A stretch of DNA of 63,691 nucleotides, counting the filler, from Rhabdomonas costata (Eukaryota): assembly GCA_019059605.1 (NCBI GenBank). It is 57 parts of 57 records of this genome, joined end to end, with 100 filler letters (N's around TTAATTAATTAA, not from the genome) between each part and the next. Parts side by side here need not be neighbours in the genome. Positions count along the whole stretch, not along the records: positions 52,617 to 53,635 come from JAHMHO010033190.1; 56 more parts are not named here. The stretch is one strand, 5' to 3'. The notes beneath the pieces were generated by a model, which did no database searches, had not been told where the DNA came from, and saw only the letters and a program-made list of their open reading frames with translations. The position numbers and the translations under genes were made by a program. Position 1 is the stretch's first letter, and each line of letters starts with the position of its first letter. Below are positions 1,121 through 63,276 of this stretch, piece after piece.

Positions 1121-1522
1121 GTGTTGGGTGTGTGTGGTGGGTGTTGTCGCCGCTTTCCTTTCCGCCCCTTGTTTTCCTTGCTGTTTTTTTTTCCTGGTAG
1201 CTCACATCTGGTAGCCCTTCATTCACCCCTGGCTCCTTTTGGTGGGGCCTGCCGCCGTTGTGCAATTGGGCATTTTGTACTGTGCGGTGCGTGATTTGCA
1301 ATGTGCAGCTCCTGCCTGGAGAGTAACCTCGTCCATCCAGGGTGCGGGTGCCGGTCATCTCCAGCCACCTCTTCTCCTTGTTCTCTCTCTCTCTCGCTCT
1401 CGCTCTGGATTTTCTCGTTGTCGGTCGGACCTCTCCCCCGCGCTGACACCTGCAGGTGTTCTGCTCTTAAAGCCCTGTCCATGCGTCCCAATCAGTCGAA
1501 GCTGTGCCGAATGAAATCGTAG

Positions 1523-1646
1523 GTACGCCGTTAACAAGCTGCGCAGCCAGACCCCCACCGTGGCCAGCTCGCAGCTAAGCAACATCATGACCAATGTGAA
1601 CAACATGGGGAGCTTCCCAGACTTCCCGGAGCTCATCCTGTCTGAG
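1523..1646 (+). CDS. Internal exon, unknown protein (YAVNKLRSQTPTVASSQLSNIMTNVNNMGSFPDFPELILSE)
   Basis: ag| at 1521-1522 and |gt at 1647; open frame with C/G-rich third positions. Confidence 0.4.
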
Positions 1647-1874
1647 GTTTTGCCCACCTCCCACACACATGGCTTCTGATTGCGCAACCCGTTAACATGA
1701 TGTCAATGCTTGGACATGCGTGTCCCCGTACTTTCCATCACAACAAATACAAATAAGGACGAGGGTCGTGGGCAGCCCGCTTTGGCGTTTTGCTCGACAC
1801 CTCCCCACACATACATACGCACACGCTCATTGGTACCTTCACTTCTGATTGCTTTCTCGTTAGTCTGTGATGGT

Positions 1875-2140
1875 ATGACGAGGATATTCTGCTCTGGATG
1901 TCTAAGAAAGCCATCAAATCTCTCCAGAACAACGACATGAAGATCGGATTTCTGTCACTCACTATACTTCTCGGCAACCCATAATGTCTGACCACTTCCC
2001 ACAAAAACAACTCCGCACTCATCTCATTTTGGCATGGTATCAGAACCACAATCTTGGTTGCCCGATCCGTGACTGTCAAGACCTCGTTCACCTTTCCGTT
2101 TCAAGCCTTTACCACAAAACTTCCACGGACCTGTCGGCAT
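1875..2140 (-). mobile_element. Ty3/gypsy integrase core (rve) fragment, decayed
   Basis: VLTVTDRATKIVVLIPC...LFLWEVVRHYGLPRSIVSDRNPIFMSLFW...SSSYH matches the gypsy integrase pattern VVVDRxTK...HGLPxSIVSDRDPxFxSxFW...SSxYHP. Similarity breaks off after YH. Confidence 0.9.
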
Positions 2141-12862: not shown

Positions 12863-13499
12863 CCTTGCGCGTTCTTGGGGACCGGATGGCACCCCGAGAA
12901 CGCACCCGAGAACCCACAGGGCGCAAGGAGCTGTCCACGCTTACTTGAACTGATCCAACCTCATGCTCCGTCGGCACAGCGTCTCCGAGACCTCCACCTG
13001 AGAAGGCCCTTGCGGCACCTAAGGAACAAGCACGGCCTCGATGGGGCGTTGTCGGGCCTCTGCTCTCACATGCGCGCTTCCCACATAGGAGGGGACTTTC
13101 CGTGCCACCTCTGGAAGAGGAAGCGCCGCCATACTTTCTCGACCATTTGCTTCGGATACCCCCGCCAGAGGGTATTCCGGAAGACCATAGCCACGGACTC
13201 CTTGATACACACACGCACACACTTACAGGTGAAAGAAAGAAAAGAAAAGCTGCCCGTAACCTAATACGCGCGCAGTAAGTTCTCGCAGGGTCCTGTAGCT
13301 GTGTTGTCAGACGTGGGTGCCGGCTCACCACAACCCNNNNNNNNNNNNNNNNNNNNNNNNNNNNNNNNNNNNNNNNNNNNTTAATTAATTAANNNNNNNN
13401 NNNNNNNNNNNNNNNNNNNNNNNNNNNNNNNNNNNNGTTTTTGTGCGATTCTGCCGCAGAATCACAGAAAAACAGGAACGCAAAGAAAAAAAGCGCGCC

Positions 13500-14280
13500 T
13501 GGTGCCAATCGTTGCTCAGCTCCGACAGGTCAGAAGGTTCCTGCATGTATGCATTCGAAAGAAAATACCGCCCCAAAAGGGCCTTGCACGCGCCATAGTC
13601 TTCATAAACCTCACGAATGCGCTCATCCGCAAAGTAAGGTCGGAGCTCCAGCAGTGTACCCTTGTCTTCAGAGTTGTCGATGACCATCACGGAGCAACCG
13701 TTGCCGAGGTCAATCTCGGCGCCACAGGAGATGGCTACAGGTTGGATTTCCCCGCCTAGCCACGGGCTTGTGGCCTTGGAAACAGGTGCTTCCACAATAA
13801 TTGCATGCACATGTGAGGTTAGATCCATTAACTTTGTCAAGGCAACCTTGGCATCCGATGATCTCAGAATTCGCCAAACGCCCGCGGTTGCGGTGAAAGG
13901 TCTGGAGTTAGAGCTTTCCTTCTGTGACGCCTCATTCCTGACGTTGCCTTGCACAACTGGAGGTCCAATATTCGCATACCTGATCAGCTCGGACAGTCCA
14001 GGACAGGCAGACCGAGGCACGTTGCCAGGAGACTTCTTTTGCTTCCGGGATAGAAGACCTGGGCATGAAAGCTTCGGCAAGATATCCGTTGATGCATCGT
14101 CCACGGGTACAAACACGGGAGGCGGCGTCAGCGGAAGGGAAGAAACAGATGACACCTTTACAATTCCGCATTCCAAAGGGATAGGAACCGCCACCCCTTT
14201 TTGTACGTCCCTCAAAACTACCAAATCCAAAGTCGATTTTTGGTTCCGCTTGGGATGTAGGGGAAGACCGATGTTTTGGA
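13500..14280 (-). CDS. Long exon of unknown protein
   Basis: Part of a 319-codon open frame with globular-looking composition; it may end at CAG|gcgcgc before a T-rich tract. Confidence 0.4.
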
Positions 14281-14282
<2 letters not shown>

Positions 14283-14328
<46 letters not shown>

Positions 14329-14336
14329 AAGGCACG
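14283..14336. repeat. (GGCACA)n hexamer microsatellite
   Basis: Seven perfect units plus two variant units. Confidence 0.95.
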
Positions 14337-15039
14337 AGACGCAAGGGATTGTGGTCTAGTTCTCAGCTCCAGTGGTGGGGCACCACTCTGGGAAGCGAGT
14401 GGCCCTCCCCGTGGCGGCGCTCCACACCGCGGAGCTCGTGGAGCACACCCAACACCNNNNNNNNNNNNNNNNNNNNNNNNNNNNNNNNNNNNNNNNNNNN
14501 TTAATTAATTAANNNNNNNNNNNNNNNNNNNNNNNNNNNNNNNNNNNNNNNNNNNNGTTGGTTGGTTGAATATGCCAGGTTCCCCCTGGGTTACTTTAGC
14601 AGGGAGACTGTTCACCGCCGCGGAACGGCCTAGGATTACAGGTGCTAAAACAGGAACCTACATATGAAAGTCATGCGTTTCACTGAAAAGGGCCTCCTGA
14701 GGCAGCGTTGGAGGTGCCCAGATAAGGCCAGGTGGGGGATTATTACGAACCGGGGTGCTTCTGGCCACTAACTAGCTTCGTCGGGACCTGAACACGCAAC
14801 CCGCAGCGAATGTATTAATTGGGTCGACCAAACCACAGGAAGGGATACGTCTGAGGGCGCGGCCCCAGGAAGCGACAGATTTTAATGACTTGTTCATCCC
14901 ACAGTTGGTTTATTTTTCTTCTCGCTTCTGCACTTCTACACTCCTCCAATCCAATGGCCACTGCTTACCTTTCTCCCTTTCAGGTTTGTGGGCGCCGTCG
15001 TGTGTGTGTGCCCCCCCCATCACTAGCCTCACCATTTGC

Positions 15040-16515: not shown

Positions 16516-16595
16516 GTGAGTGCGTGTGGTGCAAGCCTGCCATTGTGTTGTTTTAATCGGCATTACTTTGGAATTGTACCCACGGCAAGGAACCA

Positions 16596-16654
16596 TAACT
16601 CTAACCCAAACCGCATCACTAACCCTAACTCTAACCCTAACTCTAACCCTAATC
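16596..16654. repeat. Degenerate interstitial telomere-like (CCCTAA/CTCTAA)n tract
   Basis: ctaaccctaactctaaccctaactctaaccctaa. Confidence 0.75.
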
Positions 16655-19035: not shown

Positions 19036-20055
19036 TTCTTCTTCTTTCCTACATCATCCTCTCTTGGTTGGGTTTGTCAGTTAACTTTGATTAATTATTC
19101 TTATTAGGTCGCTGATTTAGTATAGTTTTTGGCTTTTTATTTTATTTTCAATCGTCATAAAATTTTCGTGTTTAAATGACTTCGATTTCAGATTTTGGTG
19201 CAGTAACAATTCTAATTTTTTCGATTAAAAAAAGTGTAATGATTTTTGTTTTTAAATTTTTAGAAATAATTAATTGTGTGTATTTTATGGAAGTTGTTAC
19301 TTAATTTGTGAGATTTTAATTACTTTCTTTTTTAATTTATGAAAATAAATAATAAAGGGCATTTAAGTAAGGGAGAGTGAGCATAGCTCAATCAACCCAC
19401 CAATATTAGGAGAATAGCCTAAGTTTGAATAAATTAAGTGAATAGCCCAATTAATATTTCAATACCTAAATTACCCTCATATATAAGAGCAAAACTCAAT
19501 TTTCCCAAAACTTAAACCTAAACTCGTTCTCATCTTCGTCCATTTCACGCCACCGATCCACTTCACGCCGCCGATCCATTTCACGCCACCGATCCACTTC
19601 ACGCCGCCGATCCATTTCACGCCGCCGCATCGTCGCCAATCGTCGTCCATCCTCGTTGCTGATCCCTAACGTCGCCGGCGAGATCCGTCATAGACGCCGT
19701 CAAGATCCGCCATAGATGGCGTCGATTCCGTCGAGCTCCGGCGGCGACGATGCTCGGAGAATTGACGGCTCAGATTGACTCAAAAATCGGCGGGGGAGAG
19801 GAATCGGCGGCTGAGAGGAAATCGGCGGCGATGGATGGGATTGAGGAGAGGCACTTTGTAAATTCACGAATCGGTTAATTTAATTAACATACTGGAATGA
19901 GTTAGGTTAATTAATTAACTGATTCGTGAAGGATTTGAAATTCACAAAAAATTTACAAAAATCATAACTTAAGTCAATTGATATTCAAAGCATTCAATTA
20001 ATTAACCTAATTCCGAATTCAATCATTTAGTAAATTAACTTTAGTCACAAAACAC
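19036..20055. other. AT-rich non-coding fragment with GC-rich core; probably foreign (plant-like) DNA or a MITE-type element
   Basis: Composition unlike neighbouring fragments; no ORF in the track; internal inverted repeat near 19863-19930. Confidence 0.5.
19540..19626. repeat. 18-bp tandem repeat (CAYTTCACGCCRCCGATC), about 4.8 copies
   Basis: Directly visible, with alternating variants that give a 36-bp higher-order period. Confidence 0.95.
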
Positions 20056-25751: not shown

Positions 25752-26624
25752 TTGTGGGTGTCCGCTTTCCGTTGCTTTGCGAGGAGCTGCGGAGGTTTGG
25801 TGGCGATGTGGTCGGGATGCAGGAGATGGACCGGCACTTTGACTTCATGCAGCCGTTCATGGAGGGGCTTGGGTACGCTTCTCTGTACGAAAAGCGGCCC
25901 AGTAAGGTGGACGGACTCGGGCTGTACTACAAGAAGGAGAGGCTCACTCTGAAGCGCAGGTAATTAAGCCTTCCAACGAAAGCACACACCTTACAGCTCC
26001 TTTGTCATTGAGCAATGACAGATAGTATATAGCGCTGCGGTTCTTCTAAGCCGCCAGACGGGGTTTTAGTACAGTCTGGCGTAAATTTGCAGATCACGGC
26101 CCATCCTTCAGGGGTCGCACCAGTGACAAGTGTCATTTCCATCTTGCACCCTCTCTGCCCTCCGTTTTATTTGTTGAAGATCCGCTTCGGTTTGTCTCTA
26201 TCACACCTCTTCATACTTGTGTCGTTGCCTTATGCAACGACGCGCAACAGGCCAGTTGGGCGCTGCCTCCGTTAGCTTGCCCTCTTTTCTCTATCCATAC
26301 GTCTGTCTTTCATTTTCCTGTCGTAATGCAGCAAGAGCATTTGCTACGACGAAGCCGACGAGCGCAGCCAGACTCATAACATTGCCATTCTGGCGGAGTT
26401 CGAGCCCAGAGCCGAGGGCTCCTGCCCAGTGAAGGGCGTGGACACTCAGAGAACGTCCCCCTTTGTCTTTGTCACGACGCACATTTTCTGGGACCCCGCA
26501 AAGGAGGACATTAAAGTCCGGCAAGCCGCCCGGCTGCTGCGGGAGGTCGCCGAGTTTCGGAGGGTGGGAGACGGGTCTCTACCCGTGGTGATCTGCGGAG
26601 ATTTCAACTCGCTGCCCACGTCAG
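25752..26624 (+). CDS. CCR4/nocturnin/angel-family EEP phosphodiesterase, two exons (25752-25959, 26332-about 26624)
   Basis: DVVGMQEMD...DGLGLYYK, HNIAI, TTHIFWDP...KVRQ and VICGDFNSLP motifs; the phase-2 GT-AG intron keeps the frame. Confidence 0.93.
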
Positions 26625-26871
26625 GTGTATCGGCGGCGGTTTTTGGCTCGGGGGTTTACGCGAGGGGGTTCGTCCGAATTCTGGGATTCTGGGATTTGAG
26701 ACTTGTCCTTTTATCTGGCCTTCCGGTAAGACATGGATTCCAGTTGGGCATAGTTCGGACGAACCCCCAACNNNNNNNNNNNNNNNNNNNNNNNNNNNNN
26801 NNNNNNNNNNNNNNNTTAATTAATTAANNNNNNNNNNNNNNNNNNNNNNNNNNNNNNNNNNNNNNNNNNNN

Positions 26872-38069: not shown

Positions 38070-38806
38070 GTTTGTTGTGCCGTTACTATTTATAAAATAA
38101 CTTGTTACAGTATATGTTCTAGATGTTCCATTAAATGAACCATCAGCCGAAGTTGGGGTTTTCAATGATTTATCTTCGAAAATGATATTTCCTTTGACAT
38201 CATCAACAAAATTAGTTACAACTGATGAATTTTGTGCATGTGTACCAACTTGTAAAGATGTTGATGACTTCAGTTTTTGATTCATATACACTTGAAAATC
38301 TAATTGAACATGTGAATTTTTACCAACATTTAATAAATTTAAATGATCTACTTTTGAATTAGTCCATAATGAACCATTATATACTAATGATTGACCTGAT
38401 GTTGCTGATGATATTGTACAATCAGATAAATCACTACCAAGTTGAAATATGCATTTTTCCATGTTGAAGAAGCATAATCATATTTTAACATTTGTTTATC
38501 GTGTACCGAAGACATACTAACATCTGTTAAAGCTGACAATGTCATTGTAGCGTTCGAATTTACCCATTTAGTACCATTGTAACGTAATACTTGACTTGGT
38601 GTAAGACCTGCCAAAGATACATCTGTAAGACCAGATAATGTAGATGATCCAGTACCTCCACCACAACCTGTTCCATTAGTCCATTTACCAGCACTGAAAA
38701 CAAGAGATTGGCCATCTGTTGGAGCAACTATTTGACAATCTTTTAGTTTTTGTAAATAAGTAATTGATTCCTCGCCACTAGAAACATTATCAGTAATAAA
38801 CCCCAT
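38070..38806 (-). CDS. Virion fibre-like repeat protein, frameshifted near 38445, 3' incomplete
   Basis: Four L..L.D(V/C).....gq.L.y....W.N repeats, then DHLNLLNVGKNSHVQLD. The two track ORFs join with a one-base indel. AT-rich and intronless. Confidence 0.75.
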
Positions 38807-38850
38807 TTATATAATACAGACATAAAAAAATATCTGATTATAATATATAC
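38807..38850. promoter_or_regulatory. Candidate bidirectional viral promoter
   Basis: 44-bp AT-rich spacer; the + strand reads tatctgattataatatatacATG and the - strand reads tgtctgtattatataaATG. Confidence 0.45.
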
Positions 38851-39088
38851 ATGATCTCTTTATTCGTTTCAAATAGCGATTCAAGAAATGTTAGTAAAAA
38901 TGGTTCACAGGTACAGTTAAGCTTAAATCCACCTGTCGTATTAGATCCAGAGAAAAAATATTACTGTAGTTGTGTAGAGTGTGACATTGTGTACTGTTTC
39001 GCTAACATTTTTACTGGTGTAAATGATAGATTTGTTTACACAGTTGGATCAACAACATATACACATTATTTTTCTCAAGGTATTTACA
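38851..39088 (+). CDS. Minor capsid (penton)-like protein of Polinton-like virus/virophage type, 5' part
   Basis: VQLSLNPPVVLDPEKKYYCSCVECDIVYCFANIFTGVNDRFVY...YFSQGIY fits the penton N-terminal pattern f...l..pi.L....y..al....i.ys.pNI....N..f.y...i..G.Y. Confidence 0.75.
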
Positions 39089-45586: not shown

Positions 45587-46406
45587 TATCCCGACGAAGA
45601 ACGGGCAGAGGGCGGAGAATGGAGAGCTTATCTTCCAAACCGTTCCATTAGCGTACAGAACAAAGATAACAGAAAGCAAGCAAGCAAGAAAATACAATCA
45701 ACAACCTGCGGTCAAGAAGGTTCAAACCAGAAAGGTGTTTCACCGTTTTCAGCAGGTGATGCTGACCGATCCGTCGTGCAAAAATACGAAAAGAAAAAAC
45801 ACANNNNNNNNNNNNNNNNNNNNNNNNNNNNNNNNNNNNNNNNNNNNTTAATTAATTAANNNNNNNNNNNNNNNNNNNNNNNNNNNNNNNNNNNNNNNNN
45901 NNNGTGGGGGTGTCTTTGCATTGGGGTTCAGTTTTGGAGGGGAAAAATGGGAAGTTAGCGGAGGTGAGGAGGCCTTAAAACGCCAAAAGGACCAGTTTTT
46001 AAAACACTGTATGTGTGTTCATTGTTTGGTTTCATTGTCGGGCCAATAGAGCTTGGTTTTTTGAAAGGTAAGGGGTTGTCCGTTCGTCTAATAAGTATGT
46101 TTTGCATAACGAATCCAATGCGCCAGTGAGGTTTCCAAAGGACCCCCGCCCTGTGTGGGTGTGCGTGCCGGTGTCCTCGGCGGATGTTTTCTTCTTTGTG
46201 TGTGTGTGTGTGCCTTATATCTTTGCATTAGTTTAGGACGGACAGAAACCAAGCCTGCCTTGTCTTCACACACTGGTTTTGCACCGGACGAGTCCGTCTT
46301 TTTTGTTTTTCCCCCCTTGTTTTGTTCTCGGGAAGACTAGAGCAGTGCGTGCGTGGGTGGGTGCGTGCGTGCGAGTGTTGTCGTGTGCCGGTGGGGACCA
46401 TTACAG

Positions 46407-46558
46407 GGGGGAAACCGAAGGAGCGTAGGGAGAGCCGCTACTACTGCCCCAACTACTGCGCCAACTGCGGCGCCGCGGGGCACTACTCCCGAGAGTGCCC
46501 CCTCCCCCGCAGAGACTTTCTGAAGGCCTGCGTCGTGTGCGGGCGCTCTGACCACCTG
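46407..46558 (+). CDS. CCHC zinc-knuckle exon resembling ZCCHC7/Air1-2
   Basis: RYY...CANCGAAGHYSRECPLPRR...CVVCGRSDHL; AG/GT bounded, so a host gene rather than gag. Confidence 0.75.
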
Positions 46559-49500
46559 GTGCGCGAGCGCCCCTCCCTTGCTCCCCTCCTTTTGGAGGCA
46601 TTCGCGCGGGTAGCTCGCCTGGACCTTCGATTGGTCCTTCGATGGTACTTAGCGAAAAGTTGATCGCCTCAGCTTCCCACCAGCTTCCCACCAGCTTCCC
46701 ACCGCCCCAAATTAGTAGACGCACCGTATCTTCTTAGCCAGGGGACAATCGTATTGGGGCGTTAAACGTTCTGGACTTTGAGGATCGATTGTGACAACAT
46801 TAGTTTAGCGGCGGAAGCCAGTCCGCCATGGCGGGGGGCGGTGTTAAAGGTTTATCACCATGCTGGGAGCTACATGACCTTCCCAGGCCGTCACAGCCCA
46901 CGCCTCCCCAAAACCCAAACANNNNNNNNNNNNNNNNNNNNNNNNNNNNNNNNNNNNNNNNNNNNTTAATTAATTAANNNNNNNNNNNNNNNNNNNNNNN
47001 NNNNNNNNNNNNNNNNNNNNNGTGTTGTGTGTTGGGGGGTTTTCATCGGTGAGGCGCGGGCTTTCCGGGTTCGGATACTAACAAGGGAGAACCCGGAGGA
47101 CGACCGGATCTCTGGTCGGCACTCCCGAGTTCTGCTGCAGCGGGCTCTCAGGTTGGTGCACTGAGGCTTTGCGGCTTTGCGTCACCTGCAGTGTGCGTGC
47201 CGTAAATATGTGTCCGAGAAAGGTCTATGAGATGTTGTTCAGATGGTTTTTGCGCTCGGCATGAGCGTGCGGGCCAGACCCATGAAGAAGCCGCACATAT
47301 ACACTTGCTCAGAAGTAGGCAGGGGTCAGTCCGTGCTTCTGGTGAGTTGGAAAGGTGGTGACAGGATGTCCAGTTTTATGGACTCGTGAGGGGTCACTGA
47401 GACCCTCGAAAGTATGGGGGATGCCCCCTCCCTCGCCTCCTTTTTCCACTTTTCAATACTCCTCCGTGATTTTTGGTCCATAGGTGTGAATGTCCCATTC
47501 AGTCCGTAAGTCAGTCTGTCTGCTGGTAAGCCTCTGGAGATTCCCCCCGGTTTTTGGTTTTCACTGCAGAGCAGCCTCTGCGTGGGCCCCTGCTGGCGGC
47601 TTCGTTCGACTACTGCTGCCGCGCCTGCCCTGCTCCGCGCTTTCGGTGGAGATCCGCGTAGACGGTGCTGGCTTCCACCCTCTGAACCACAATGCTACGA
47701 CAAGCCCAGGCAGCTGGGGCTCCATCTCTCGAACGGTGCTCCTGTACTGCTCCTCTCTATGGGAGCGGTGGCTTCGGCAATGGCCGGTGCGCCCGCGAAG
47801 GGCTCGTCTACAGGCTCAGATCCGCCGGATGGCCGCGCAGCGTGCGCGAACTTACGCTGAGATGCTGCGGGAGCTGCCGTGAGAGTCGGTGGCGGGGCTG
47901 GTTCATTGTGCCTGCCCCCGGCGGCCCCTGCCAGAGGATCCGAGGGTCGGCGAATGTCCTCTATTGGGTCATGAGAACTGGGCAGACGGCCCACCGGAGG
48001 GCACCGAACGGGAATCGGCGGGTTCTTATTCCCCAAAACANNNNNNNNNNNNNNNNNNNNNNNNNNNNNNNNNNNNNNNNNNNNTTAATTAATTAANNNN
48101 NNNNNNNNNNNNNNNNNNNNNNNNNNNNNNNNNNNNNNNNGTGTTGGTGTGTTTGGGTTGTTGTGTGGTGGAGACAATGGAAAAGTGACGGGTACGGAGG
48201 GAAACAATAACGGGGGTGGAAGAAAAAGTGAAAGGAAGAGAAGTGCCTGTGCACGGCGAGACGTGTGTTGAAGCTTATATAAGCTGTGTGACTTGCATCC
48301 TTTCTCTTGGCATATGGCGTGAAAACAACGCATGAGCTCCCATTGCCTCAGAAAAACCTGATACCTTTCAGCCTTCCAGTGGGTAGCCCGCTTTGCGGTA
48401 TTCCTGTCATATCAGCGCTAGTATCTTTTTCGGGTCAATTCTTCTGACACTGAAGATCTTCGGTGGGCGCAAACGTTCTCTCGTGCTCGCACACACGCAA
48501 ACTCTTGTTCTGCTTCTTCATTCAGTCTCCCTACGAGCTTCAACAATTATCTGTTTGCCCTTCTTCGCTAAGCGTGTTCGCCCCCCTCCCGTTATTGTTT
48601 CCCTCCGTACCCCTCACCTTTCCATTGTCTCCATCAAAAAACAGCTTCTGGTTCGCTTCATGCTTAGATGTACACCACCCTCCGGGCGGTTTGGTACACC
48701 CTCATATTCTTCCTGAACCTCTTAGGCTTTTTTCTTAATTGCCAATTATTGCTTACCCGATTAATTGTGATTCTGCACGACAAACCATGGCTTCTGTTAT
48801 ACCCTGTGTCATGGCAATAAGCGCACTGCAAATAGTGAAGGGCAAAAGCCCGCCGCTGAATCACACTGGTAATGAAGCGAACTTCCCTCCATCAAAAGTC
48901 ACGGGGTAGAACTCGTGCGCTCACAAAAAGGAACTCCAAGCTGTACAGAGGACAGCAGATCACACCCACGAAGTTCTACAAAAAGCGCGTCAAATTTTGC
49001 ATTACTTCCAACGTGAAAGATTTGGACAACGGAAGAAAAACTCAACATGACAAAAGACATGCACAGCAAGAAGAAACAAAAGCACCTGAGACACGAAAAA
49101 AGAGCACACGTCCCAATGCCCATTCCTATCACACATCTCTCAGACAAGCACCCACAACCNNNNNNNNNNNNNNNNNNNNNNNNNNNNNNNNNNNNNNNNN
49201 NNNTTAATTAATTAANNNNNNNNNNNNNNNNNNNNNNNNNNNNNNNNNNNNNNNNNNNNTGTTTTTGTTGTGCGGCTTGTGGTGTCGCGTGCGACGGTGT
49301 GGATGGGTGGCCTGTAATTGACTGGGAGTGAGGTCGATGAGGGTGGTCCTCCGCAGCACTCTTGCTGCTGTGGTGGTGATGGTGCTGTTCTCTTTGGGTC
49401 TGTCTGGAGGCCGTCTGGGGCTGCTTCCGCCACACTGGGGCGGCACCCCGGAGCACACCTGTTCCTGCCCTTCCTCGCCCATGCCTTCACCGAAGACGCC

Positions 49501-50917: not shown

Positions 50918-52617
50918 ATGGGCTGCGGCGACGTTCTGCGGAAAGGCAAACTCACTCAATCATTCACTTACTCACACTTCGCTCAGTTTCTCCGCTTGGT
51001 GCAGCCAAATACCGCTCCCTTTTGTCACAGACACTCCTGTCTGTCAGAGTCAGTGGTCTTCCTTTCCCCCATTCAGCCACCCGGTTTTCCACGTACCACC
51101 TCCACACACATACCACTCACCCTCACATTGCAGCCAGATGATCTTATATTCACATTCTCAGCCAGTATGCTGCCTCTGTCTCCCATCCTCCATAGTATCC
51201 ATAGCAGTACTTTATCACACCTCGGTGTACACCGCAGCCCGATCTGCCATTCCCTTCCGTGGTGCTTCCTTGGTAATTGGTTATGTGTGTTTGCGGAGGG
51301 GCGTTCACACAGATTTTTTCTTTTCGTTTGGGCTGAACGTGGCGATCCGGATTTTCCTCGGCTGTACTTGTACTATTGGGAGTATTGCCCAAACACCNNN
51401 NNNNNNNNNNNNNNNNNNNNNNNNNNNNNNNNNNNNNNNNNTTAATTAATTAANNNNNNNNNNNNNNNNNNNNNNNNNNNNNNNNNNNNNNNNNNNNGCC
51501 TCTGCTCGGTCGTTCGGGCCTTCTCATTTTGCCGAGGCGTTCGCGCGGGTCTTCTCCGGAGGCCGTAATCCTCTCCCTGAGAGCTTGTCTGAAACTTTGG
51601 AGGAGGTAGAGTCTCGCGTTGTAGTATTTTTCTGCGTGGTAGGCATTTATTTTTTGCGTTTGCCGCTTTTTTTCAAGCCCCAGGCGTTGAACCTCGGGTA
51701 ATGCCCCCACAAACGGGGGTCCCACAGTGCACAACAATAGACTACTGCGCCAGGCCATCGACCTGTGTTACTATTTGGCTTTGATTTATTGCTGTGAATA
51801 TGCTCAGTGTGTTGATGCTTAAAAAAGTAGTCACTATTAAGGGAGTCACTATTTGCTCTTTCCTATGCCTATCCTTTCTTTGTGCTGCAGAAATTTCACG
51901 TCAGTGAGAACGGGCTAATTATATTTTAAGGCTGCTTTTTTGTTTGCAGGCTGCTCGTACAAAGGTTGTACAATGCATGCTCTCGTGGAAGAACTTCATG
52001 AAGGCAGTGGTCGACGAGTATGCAGCGGAGAAGGTCCGTGTGGAGGCCGAAAATGTGGCCCTAGTGGAGAAAAAACGTGAAGGTGCTCATGTCTATTGGA
52101 TGGTTTTTTGTGTTTTAGGAGAGGTATACCACCTGGGAGGCCTGCTGTACACACAAAAGACCCCAGGCCTGCGTTGTCTTGGCCCTGTAGACCTCCACCA
52201 CCCTTTTCTTTTCTTTTGCTCTCTCCCGCCCCTGCGTCGGTGGCCTTCCCGTGGTCCTCTTGCGTTGCTTCGTCGTGCTTCATGTTCGCCGTGTCACTCT
52301 GATGGGCCCCCACTTCGTTGCTGCCCAGTCCCTTTGCTCTCGGTCCCAGTGTTGTTTTTAGTTTTTGTCACTCCCCTTCCCATCTTTTGTGCACTGTACT
52401 GTGCACGGTGTCTTTTTGTTCTGTGCACTTGTGGGTCTTGTGTTCAGCGGACAGTGGACATTGTGATCAGTTTAGGAGAGTTGCATTTTGCTAGCCACGT
52501 GCACTGCCATCCTCATNNNNNNNNNNNNNNNNNNNNNNNNNNNNNNNNNNNNNNNNNNNNTTAATTAATTAANNNNNNNNNNNNNNNNNNNNNNNNNNNN
52601 NNNNNNNNNNNNNNNNT

Positions 52618-52773
52618 GTTGTCCTTTTTAACCACTCAGACGAAGACCTTAACGTTACTATAGGAGACAACGTGGCGCAGCTCCTCCTTGAGAAGATTGC
52701 AACACCAGAAGTAATTGAGCACACCGAGCTGACAAGGACCGGCCGAGGAGGCCAAGGCTTTGGCTCCACAGAT
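52618..52773 (+). CDS. dut: Trimeric dUTPase C-terminal part, within a retroelement pol frame
   Basis: VVLFNHS...[12 protein letters not shown]...[12 protein letters not shown] corresponds to dUTPase motifs 4 and 5. Confidence 0.95.
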
Positions 52774-53635
52774 GCGCCGGGCCCATCCCCTGTATTTCCA
52801 GCGCATATGTCCTTGCCCTCGCAGCAGACAGCTCTCAGGAGCAAACTGGTGCCCTCCCCGCCGAGAAACGAACCGCACTTTCAGCTTTTTGCAATCTCCT
52901 CCGAAGTAGAACCAGAAGAAGTCTCAGAAGCTGAAAGGCAGCGCATCAGTCGCTTGGCAGAAAGTAAACTTAAGTCCAAGAGACGCAGAAAATTGTCCCC
53001 ACGCCGTTTGGTCGAAATGCAGTTGGACCTCAAAAACATCGATCACGAGGTCTGTGGACCACCCCGTCGCCAAGCACCGATCCCTGAGGAGGTTCTACAG
53101 GTGAACGGAGAGTTTGCTCACCTCTTTCCCGATAAACTACCGCCTGGTCTCACACCATCTTGACAGACAGACCATCGCATTGATCTAAGGGCAGATGCCA
53201 AGGTACCGGCACAGCGTCTCTACCGTCTGTCACCCCTCGAGGACAAAGAGTTGCAGCGTCAACTGAAGGAACTCCTCGACCTTGGTTTTATTGAACCGAC
53301 CGTTTCACCCTATGGGGCAGGTATTCTCTTTGCCCCAAAAGCCAACGGGAAACTGCGTCTTTGCGTCGACTACCGGCCACTCAATGCCATCACAAAGGTG
53401 GATGCCTACCCCCTACCTCGAATAGATGAAATGATCGATCAGGTAGGGAAGGCGCGTTACTTTACTAAGCTCGATCTCCACTCCGGATTCCATCAAATCC
53501 GAGTCCACCCTGACCACATCGAGCGCACTGCGTTTAAAACCAAATACGGCACCTATCACTACCGAGTTATGCCGTTTGGCCTCTGTAACGCTCCCTCCAC
53601 ATTCCAGCGTACCATGGACCTCCTTTTCTCCGACC
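52618..53635 (+). mobile_element. Ty3/gypsy LTR retrotransposon pol: dUTPase-linker-RT, with one in-frame TGA at 53161
   Basis: FPDKLPPGL...DHRIDL...YRLSP...SPYGA...LRLCVDYRPLN...YPLPRID...KLDLHSGFHQIR...TAF...MPFGLCNAPSTFQR, all in the same frame as the dUTPase. Confidence 0.97.
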
Positions 53636-62500: not shown

Positions 62501-62697
62501 TTTGGCAGCACGAGGCAACAGAACGAGATGCTACGGGAGCCATGCCAACATCCAGCCTATTGCAAACCAAAANNNNNNNNNNNNNNNNNNNNNNNNNNNN
62601 NNNNNNNNNNNNNNNNTTAATTAATTAANNNNNNNNNNNNNNNNNNNNNNNNNNNNNNNNNNNNNNNNNNNNGGGTGTTGTGAATTAGGTATGTCCC

Positions 62698-63276
62698 ATG
62701 ACCTCGGACCCAAAGTGCACGGCGAAGATAGCTCCCCAGACGTACCTCACCCGGCTTCGAGTCCGAGGTCATGGGACATACCTAATTCTCAACGCCGCGC
62801 ACCCGTACCAGCTCCTCCCCTATGCCTCGCCCAGCCGAGTGGTGATTGCGATGGAGGGGCGGAGCGCAAGGCCGTGGGCTGAGCTGCGCCAGGACGTCTG
62901 CGGGCTGACGGACCCCGCCAAAGCCCGGCCTGGCTCGATGCGGGCGGAGTTCCACAGAGTGAAAGAAAAGCTCAGGCTGGCCACCGTGGATTCATGCTCA
63001 AACTGCGTTCACATCTCCGCAGGGCCTCTGGAAGCTATGGTGGAGCTTCAGCGGTTTTTTAACTGCGAAGACAGCCCCGTGGGTGTGCGCGACACCTGGT
63101 TTGGGCGGCTTCTCATCGACACTCACGGAGCCCATGAGCATCGAGTACTGCAGATCTCGAAGAACCCCCACGTCGAGACTCCCGATAGCCGGACCCTGTC
63201 TCTGTTTGAGTTGACCGAGGAGATGGACGCGGAGCAGGCAGTGGGTGTGATTCAGCATTTGGCGCTGGAGAAGTAG
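62698..63276 (+). CDS. Atypical nucleoside diphosphate kinase-like domain, 3' end of gene
   Basis: WAELRQDVCGLTDPAKARPGSMR...NCVHISAGPLEAMVE contains the NDK G.T.P..A.pgSiR and N..H.S motifs, in a protist-type extended form. Confidence 0.85.
   Translation: MTSDPKCTAKIAPQTYLTRLRVRGHGTYLILNAAHPYQLLPYASPSRVVIAMEGRSARPWAELRQDVCGLTDPAKARPGSMRAEFHRVKEKLRLATVDSCSNCVHISAGPLEAMVELQRFFNCEDSPVGVRDTWFGRLLIDTHGAHEHRVLQISKNPHVETPDSRTLSLFELTEEMDAEQAVGVIQHLALEK

Follow-up and report, generated by a model that had tools for sequence, protein, structure and literature searches.

A dUTPase tail, a linker and a Ty3/gypsy-type reverse transcriptase half in one reading frame of a 1,019-bp contig

Layout and state of the contig

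The stretch of DNA analysed here (the window, 63,691 nucleotides with filler) is composed of 57 contigs of 1,007–1,020 bp each, and the spacers between them consist of 44 N, the 12-mer TTAATTAATTAA and 44 N. Because separate contigs were joined by these artificial spacers, the DNA lying beside positions 52617..53635 is unrelated to the contig under study; an all-against-all blastn comparison of the 57 contigs found no overlap between this contig and any other. The following features are recognized on it (relatives from the protein database are cited by P numbers):

52617..53635, plus strand: the whole contig, a pol fragment of a Ty3/gypsy-type LTR retrotransposon, 1,019 bp, with an artificial N/TTAATTAATTAA spacer on each side
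52618..52773, plus strand: C-terminal 52 residues of a dUTPase of the homotrimer type (PF00692 and PDB matches), motifs 1–3 lying beyond the 5′ end of the contig
52663..52683, plus strand: dUTPase motif 4, G-D-N-V-A-Q-L, with Asn as the third residue
52744..52770, plus strand: dUTPase motif 5, R-G-G-Q-G-F-G-S-T, with the conserved residues intact
52774..53109, plus strand: linker, its first ~50 residues unconserved and the remainder common to P0004, P0005, P0006 and P0125
53110..53634, plus strand: pre-RT conserved segment and N-terminal half of a reverse transcriptase (RT), with Pfam RVT_1 over 53335..53631
53161..53163, plus strand: in-frame TGA stop at residue 182, in a column conserved as sense in the relatives

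Frame +1 from position 52618 comprises 339 codons with one stop, and neither a frameshift nor an intron is present in its 1017 nt. An earlier note on this DNA had placed dUTPase motifs 4 and 5, a linker and a gypsy RT in one frame: the dUTPase tail is indeed followed, in a single frame free of introns and frameshifts, first by the lineage-specific linker and then by the N-terminal half of a Ty3-like RT, but the frame is broken by the TGA at 53161..53163 and motif 4 carries the Asn. The contig covers motifs 4–5, the linker and approximately the first half of RT, and has no LTR, gag, protease, dUTPase motifs 1–3, RNase H or integrase. Because it is 1,019 bp of pol alone, the label “LTR retrotransposon” depends on its relatives.

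Residues 1–51 match the Pfam dUTPase profile PF00692 at profile positions 78–128 of 129 (E 1.5e-8; 34.9 bits, cut-off 22). Among solved structures, 25 distinct dUTP nucleotidohydrolase sequences match the tail, the best being 5f9k, 4oop and 2pc5 (E ~1e-12). Motif 4 retains G, D, A, Q and L, and its third residue is not basic: when the tail is aligned with the dUTPase domains of 57 retroelement relatives, Arg stands at the position of the Asn in 55 of them and Lys in two, and the solved dUTPases aligned with the tail have Arg there. This Arg contacts the phosphate chain. The residues of motif 5 (R43, G44, G47, F48, G49, S50, and T51) all agree with the majority of the 57 relatives and with the solved enzymes, the respective conservation among the relatives being 56/57, 56/57, 55/57, 48/57, 56/57, 57/57, and 51/57. 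Motifs 1–3, the third of which contains the catalytic Asp and none of which the contig reaches, are complete in the dUTPase domains of the database relatives (Pfam E ~1e-45). As motifs 4 and 5 of the trimeric type are present, the contig dUTPase is not of the dimeric all-alpha type known from trypanosomatids. The earlier statement that trypanosomatid dUTPases are dimeric agrees with PMC5803862 and with section 7 of PMC4531489, where they are described as dimeric and as lacking the five trimeric motifs.

The dUTPase ends at residue 52 and RT-type homology begins at residue ~165–185; the ~115–130 aa between them are close to the “roughly 110 aa” first estimated for the linker. The motifs shared there with P0004, P0005, P0006, and P0125 are a basic K/R run, C-G-P-P, and P-x-P-x-E-x-L. 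Further downstream, residues 240–338 match Pfam RVT_1 (PF00078) at profile positions 2–139 of 205 (E 9.7e-21), and residues 185–337 align with the solved Ty3 RT 4ol8 (E 4.2e-41), followed by the Ty3 Gag-Pol structure 7q5b (E 2.3e-40). Other solved RTs match more weakly: a caulimovirus-type “Enzymatic polyprotein” at 5.6e-25, and retroviral and foamy-virus RTs at 1e-10 or weaker. Judged by these alignments, the RT on the contig is of the Ty3/gypsy (Metaviridae) type. Together, the Pfam and structure matches bear out the previous assignment to a Ty3/gypsy element in which RT is preceded by a dUTPase of the trimeric type.

The copy is slightly damaged. In 112 of 119 relatives, the column in which the TGA falls is occupied by one and the same sense residue, and TGA is not known to be assigned to that residue in any standard genetic code table; readings of the TGA as sense or as a boundary of programmed type are therefore rejected. 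Of the 51 RT-region columns with a conservation of 90% or more among 120 relatives, the contig departs from the majority at 7, one of the seven being the stop itself, and the nearest intact relatives depart at 8 (P0004), 8 (P0005), and 9 (P0006). Save for the nonsense codon and the suspicious motif-4 residue, either of which is possibly a sequencing error, the copy is preserved like its living relatives. This state of preservation lends weak support to the earlier description of the element as fairly recent. With its in-frame stop where RT begins, and with a residue that is not basic at a near-invariant position of motif 4, the copy is probably inactive or newly inactivated.

Relatives and the patchy occurrence of the dUTPase

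A collection of 5.8 billion proteins was searched for homologues among longer proteins, with the stop of the contig read as X. Of 7271 candidates, 2668 matched at E ≤ 1e-3; the best matches are gypsy-type polyproteins, and the analyses below were made on the best 120 of the 2668. The close relatives among these 120 are all environmental proteins and give no indication of a host lineage. The nearest named relatives of the RT among the matches listed come from green algae and charophytes (50–53% identity) and have no dUTPase.

Pfam domain coordinates were taken on seven relatives. Protease, dUTPase, RVT_1, RNase H, and integrase follow one another in P0015, P0017, P0019, and P0025, so that the order PR-DUT-RT-RH-INT, raised as a question in the earlier note, is found in full-length relatives. 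An SH3 domain and a chromodomain, the latter being the mark of the chromovirus branch of Ty3/gypsy, are added in P0015, P0019, and P0025 and not in P0017, and P0025 also includes gag; no chromodomain was detected at E ≤ 1e-3 in P0005, the nearest full-length relative of the contig. Integrase lies after RT in all five of these full-length proteins, and on the contig itself the dUTPase is followed by RT. The partial protein P0006 has the protease at 7–112, the dUTPase at 175–301 and RT at 578–726.

The presence of dUTPase in the best 120 of 2668 matches was scored with local HMMs built from the domains of the relatives. A dUTPase lies upstream of RT in 59, protease and RT have none between them in 42, and 19 are too short N-terminally. 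A layout seen in 59 of these 120 does not fit the view that dUTPase is rare in LTR retrotransposons. More than 50 database polyproteins align over residues 1–337 of the 339 at 35–39% identity. The sequences closest to the contig are P0005 (72% over 206 aa of linker and RT) and P0004 (70% over 234 aa; a partial protein with an uninformative N-terminus), and the next is P0006 (58% over 252 aa, residues 88–339).

A quick maximum-likelihood tree of RT was made from 121 rows, none excluded, with SH-aLRT as its only support and with long-branch warnings. The contig, P0004, P0005, and P0006 form one clade (SH-aLRT 99) within a mostly dUTPase-less group of 13. Separate from this group, 61 rows make up a large clade (support 97), and 58 of them have a dUTPase. 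Within the sub-lineage of the contig, the occurrence of the enzyme is patchy, the linker being common to members with and without it. In P0005, the protease (209–316) and RT (from 540) have no dUTPase between them, and the linker motifs of the contig are present; in P0142, only 58 residues without a dUTPase separate the protease from the linker. P0006 and P0125, like the contig, have the dUTPase plus the lineage-specific linker. This tight RT clade with and without dUTPase (the contig, P0006, and P0125 versus P0005 and P0142) offers a natural contrast for the role of the enzyme in a retrotransposon.

The origin of the dUTPase was approached with a second tree of 57 rows, comprising 16 hand-picked domains out of the 58 from the large clade, P0006, 29 single-domain matches, 10 prokaryotic loci hand-picked from 80, and the contig tail. 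The 29 single-domain rows were drawn from the 150 representatives listed, 14 tandem-domain proteins and all partial domains being excluded. Of the 54 inner branches, 6 are starred, and the contig tail falls in a polytomy. Its identity to every comparator is 25–35 of 51 residues, for stand-alone and retroelement dUTPases alike, and that to the P0006 tail is 25 of 51. The patchiness may reflect loss of the dUTPase, its separate capture, or its exchange among elements. It is conceivable, though on the doubtful side, that the contig, P0006, and P0125 represent a second gypsy sub-lineage, which gained a dUTPase separately from the large clade or in which the dUTPase is being lost (P0005, P0142). 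A contig scan with dUTPase-motif patterns returned 80 prokaryotic dut loci matching residues 1–51 (at most 91), none of which reaches RT.

Two further observations concern database records. Fourteen of the 150 representatives listed contain two or three tandem dUTPase domains per chain, of the pseudo-trimer type (P0124, P0127–P0130, P0133, P0135, P0137, and others); these proteins topped the match list because the contig tail matched them several times. P0006 and P0027 are filed as bacterial MAG records (Azonexus sp. and Cohaesibacter sp.) with the layout PR-dUTPase-RT or dUTPase-RT-RNaseH and are annotated “dUTP diphosphatase, partial”. Their source contigs look like eukaryotic ones mis-binned into bacterial genomes, and the annotation “dUTP diphosphatase” in bacterial MAGs thereby flags such mis-binning. 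An Atlas search with P0006 gave the clusters RVT_1+dUTPase and PR+dUTPase, with 62 members each, the taxa of which are automatic “Viruses” labels.

The neighbouring contigs

Contig 52617..53635 has a GC content of 0.530, as compared with 0.520 ± 0.046 for the set, and its trinucleotide distance ranks 31 of 57, which is typical. The test is a weak one because ~52% GC is common among eukaryotes, and the contig is only weakly placed in the same genome as its neighbours. A tblastn search with the 120 relatives found gypsy pol sequence in two of the 57 contigs, namely 52617..53635 and 1121..2140; the latter carries one feature of interest:

1870..2088 (contig 1121..2140), minus strand: integrase-core fragment of Ty3/gypsy type (Pfam rve E 4.3e-5, below cut-off)

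The closest relative of this fragment is P0005 (53% over 77 aa, E 5e-19, tblastn), and the ORF that contains it ends in a (GT)n-like run. From this similarity, it may belong to the same family as contig 52617..53635. Another ORF, at 46232..46660, encodes a CCHC zinc knuckle (E 1.8e-7) and was matched in tblastn by none of the 120 relatives, including the gag-bearing P0025; it may be a host gene or the gag of an unrelated element.

On contig 25752..26771, a CCR4-like gene (endonuclease/exonuclease/phosphatase) is interrupted at 25960..26331 by an intron of 372 nt with canonical GT-AG ends. Its first piece, 25754..25959, matches the Exo_endo_phos profile at positions 22–84 (E 0.003), and the second, starting at 26332, matches positions 92–163 (E 1.7e-4). 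As both scores are under the curated cut-off, the argument for the intron is made from the consecutive parts of one domain together with the canonical borders: the borders read AG|GTAATT and pyrimidine tract plus CAG|, the intervening sequence has stops in all frames, and the pieces join in frame. The exon gave a single match among 376 candidates, a basidiomycete Ccr4 with 45% identity. An NDK-like exon beginning near 62839 likewise lies directly 3′ of a pyrimidine tract plus CAG, and an LRR ORF has a similar, unconfirmed boundary. No homologue of the NDK-like ORF was found among 47 candidates of near length. Just upstream of this exon is a perfect 26-nt inverted repeat (62683..62708 and 62762..62787, arms 53 nt apart), which may be a small intronic insertion able to form a hairpin.

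Hallmarks of kinetoplastids were also looked for in the window. For the conserved motif in the 3′ part of the spliced leader, no match was found at up to 3 mismatches. The universal minicircle 12-mer had one match with 1 mismatch, a chance result equalled in 30 of 100 shuffles. In the remaining 105 ORFs (110 aa or longer), no kinetoplastid-specific Pfam family was found, and the domains detected are generic ones (RRM, LRR, IQ, and zinc knuckle, with weak NDK, RING, rve, and Exo_endo_phos). Rfam models at gathering thresholds gave no match in the window, and an exact look-up of 10 ORFs in the protein collection found none of the 10. Inside a contig, at 16591..16652, TAACCC units alternate with TAACTC units in a telomere-like array of interstitial position; the telomere repeat of kinetoplastids is compatible with the TAACCC type.

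Two contigs are compositional outliers. The one at 38070..39088 has a GC content of 0.31, contains a 140-aa ORF of repetitive Ser/Thr/Gly-rich pattern, and had no match in the phage search. The other, at 19036..20055, has a GC content of 0.37 and a CpG o/e of 1.56, and bears an 18/36-bp tandem repeat at 19539..19627. Both may be organellar or contaminant DNA. In the Atlas search, the ORF at 13439..14362 matched phage-labelled clusters at 0.90–0.91, which is within the stated noise.

Interpretation and comparison with known elements

The reading preferred here, with a probability of roughly 0.8, is that the contig preserves part of pol from a Ty3/gypsy LTR retrotransposon with a homotrimer-type dUTPase between protease and RT, that the copy is slightly damaged, and that it resides in an intron-bearing host which is not demonstrably a trypanosomatid. 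That the junction arose during assembly or amplification, by fusion of a cellular dUTPase gene with a gypsy RT foreign to it, is hardly credible. Such an artefact could be suspected from the shortness of the contig in a highly fragmented assembly and from the tail being equally similar to stand-alone and retroelement dUTPases (25–35 of 51), but the same dUTPase-linker-RT collinearity recurs in 59 of the best 120 of 2668 relatives, and the reading frame stays in phase over the whole contig. The junction is regarded as natural because more than 50 relatives are collinear across it and because P0006 and P0125 combine a dUTPase with the linker motifs specific to the lineage of the contig.

The ownership of the contig is the more delicate matter. 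It is unlikely that it comes from some other organism co-sequenced with the host, such as a fungus, an alga or a small animal. The assembly is not clean, as the two strong outliers at 38070..39088 and 19036..20055 attest, the close relatives among the matches listed are all environmental, and gypsy sequence occurs in only 2 of 57 contigs; nevertheless, the contig conforms to the set in GC and trinucleotide content (rank 31 of 57), only one contig is more typical than the second gypsy contig, 1121..2140 (rank 56 of 57), and the neighbours look like the DNA of a eukaryote with introns, where gypsy elements would be no surprise. Very improbable is residence in the genome of a trypanosomatid or a near relative, with the intron-bearing neighbours as the contaminants. 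The contig itself bears no host marker, and the TAACCC-type repeats at 16591..16652 are compatible with such a host without being specific to it. The neighbouring CCR4-like gene with its GT-AG intron speaks against it, protein genes of trypanosomatids being virtually free of introns, as do, on the neighbouring contigs, the missing spliced leader, the chance-level minicircle 12-mer and the lack of a kinetoplastid family in the 105 ORFs; on these grounds, the trypanosomatid setting in which the earlier note had viewed the element finds no support. Furthermore, the curation of 57 trypanosomatid genomes described in PMC12278014 confirmed only INGI, CRE, VIPER, and TATE, and the Gypsy and Copia calls in them turned out to be false positives. 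If the host were truly a kinetoplastid, the element would be important, as the first confirmed Ty3/gypsy element there and as a trimeric dUTPase in cells relying on a dimeric one.

For the preferred reading, a dUTPase-gypsy element of an intron-bearing host, a function can be proposed. In an intact copy, the polyprotein would be cut by the protease, as inferred from retroviral dUTPases, and three Pol-derived dUTPase domains would assemble into a trimer, which would hydrolyse dUTP to dUMP and pyrophosphate beside the working RT. The resulting lower dUTP:dTTP ratio would leave less uracil in new cDNA, with less uracil excision, fewer strand breaks and less G-to-A change, and the benefit would be expected in cells poor in host dUTPase, such as non-dividing ones. 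The domain may be released by the protease or may act while fused to its neighbour. Retroviral dUTPases are described in PMC4531489 as homotrimers with five motifs; according to the same source, the viral dUTPase is required in non-dividing cells, and without it G-to-A change goes up and replication there goes down. By analogy with these enzymes, dUTPase activity is predicted for the retrotransposon lineage of the contig.

The element is of a known kind, with its layout in print for fungi, rotifers, and planarians, and novelty on account of the host is unsupported. As one more damaged copy in a known dUTPase-gypsy class that is abundant among environmental eukaryotic sequences, it matters little in itself. 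Its closest relatives, P0005 and P0006, differ in the very feature at issue: the former has no dUTPase, and the latter has the order PR-dUTPase-linker-RT. Yeast Ty3, the best solved match for the RT half (4ol8, 7q5b), is not known to carry a dUTPase. Among the papers listed in literature searches on dUTPase or LTR retrotransposons, none describes a dUTPase-bearing gypsy element from a protist or an alga.

Among fungi, gypsy elements of Postia placenta carry a dUTPase in a position that varies, being N-terminal, C-terminal, or between protease and RT (PMC2864245); by its description, the basidiomycete element PosPlaTy3-5, with the dUTPase between protease and RT, resembles the relatives of the contig. 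Earlier reports of dUTPase in elements of Phanerochaete chrysosporium and in Tmt1 of Tuber are cited in the same paper, and dUTPase is listed among the enriched TE-linked domains of Entomophthora (bioRxiv 10.1101/2023.09.13.557621). The statement that reports of such elements come mainly from fungi no longer holds, as the dUTPase also lies between protease and RT in all of Juno, Vesta, and TelKA of bdelloid rotifers (PMC5408684) and in giant Gypsy-like elements of planarians (PMC6431247). The rotifer elements are described in PMC5408684 without a chromodomain and often with env-like or enzymatic ORF3s, whereas a C-terminal chromodomain is present in P0015, P0019, and P0025 of the large dUTPase clade. 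The dUTPases of betaretroviruses and non-primate lentiviruses are of the homotrimer type with five motifs and part of a replicative polyprotein (PMC4531489). They differ in the position of the gene and belong to another family of retroelements, and the likeness implies neither an envelope nor an infectious cycle for the element described here, which shares with them a homotrimer-type dUTPase within the polyprotein.
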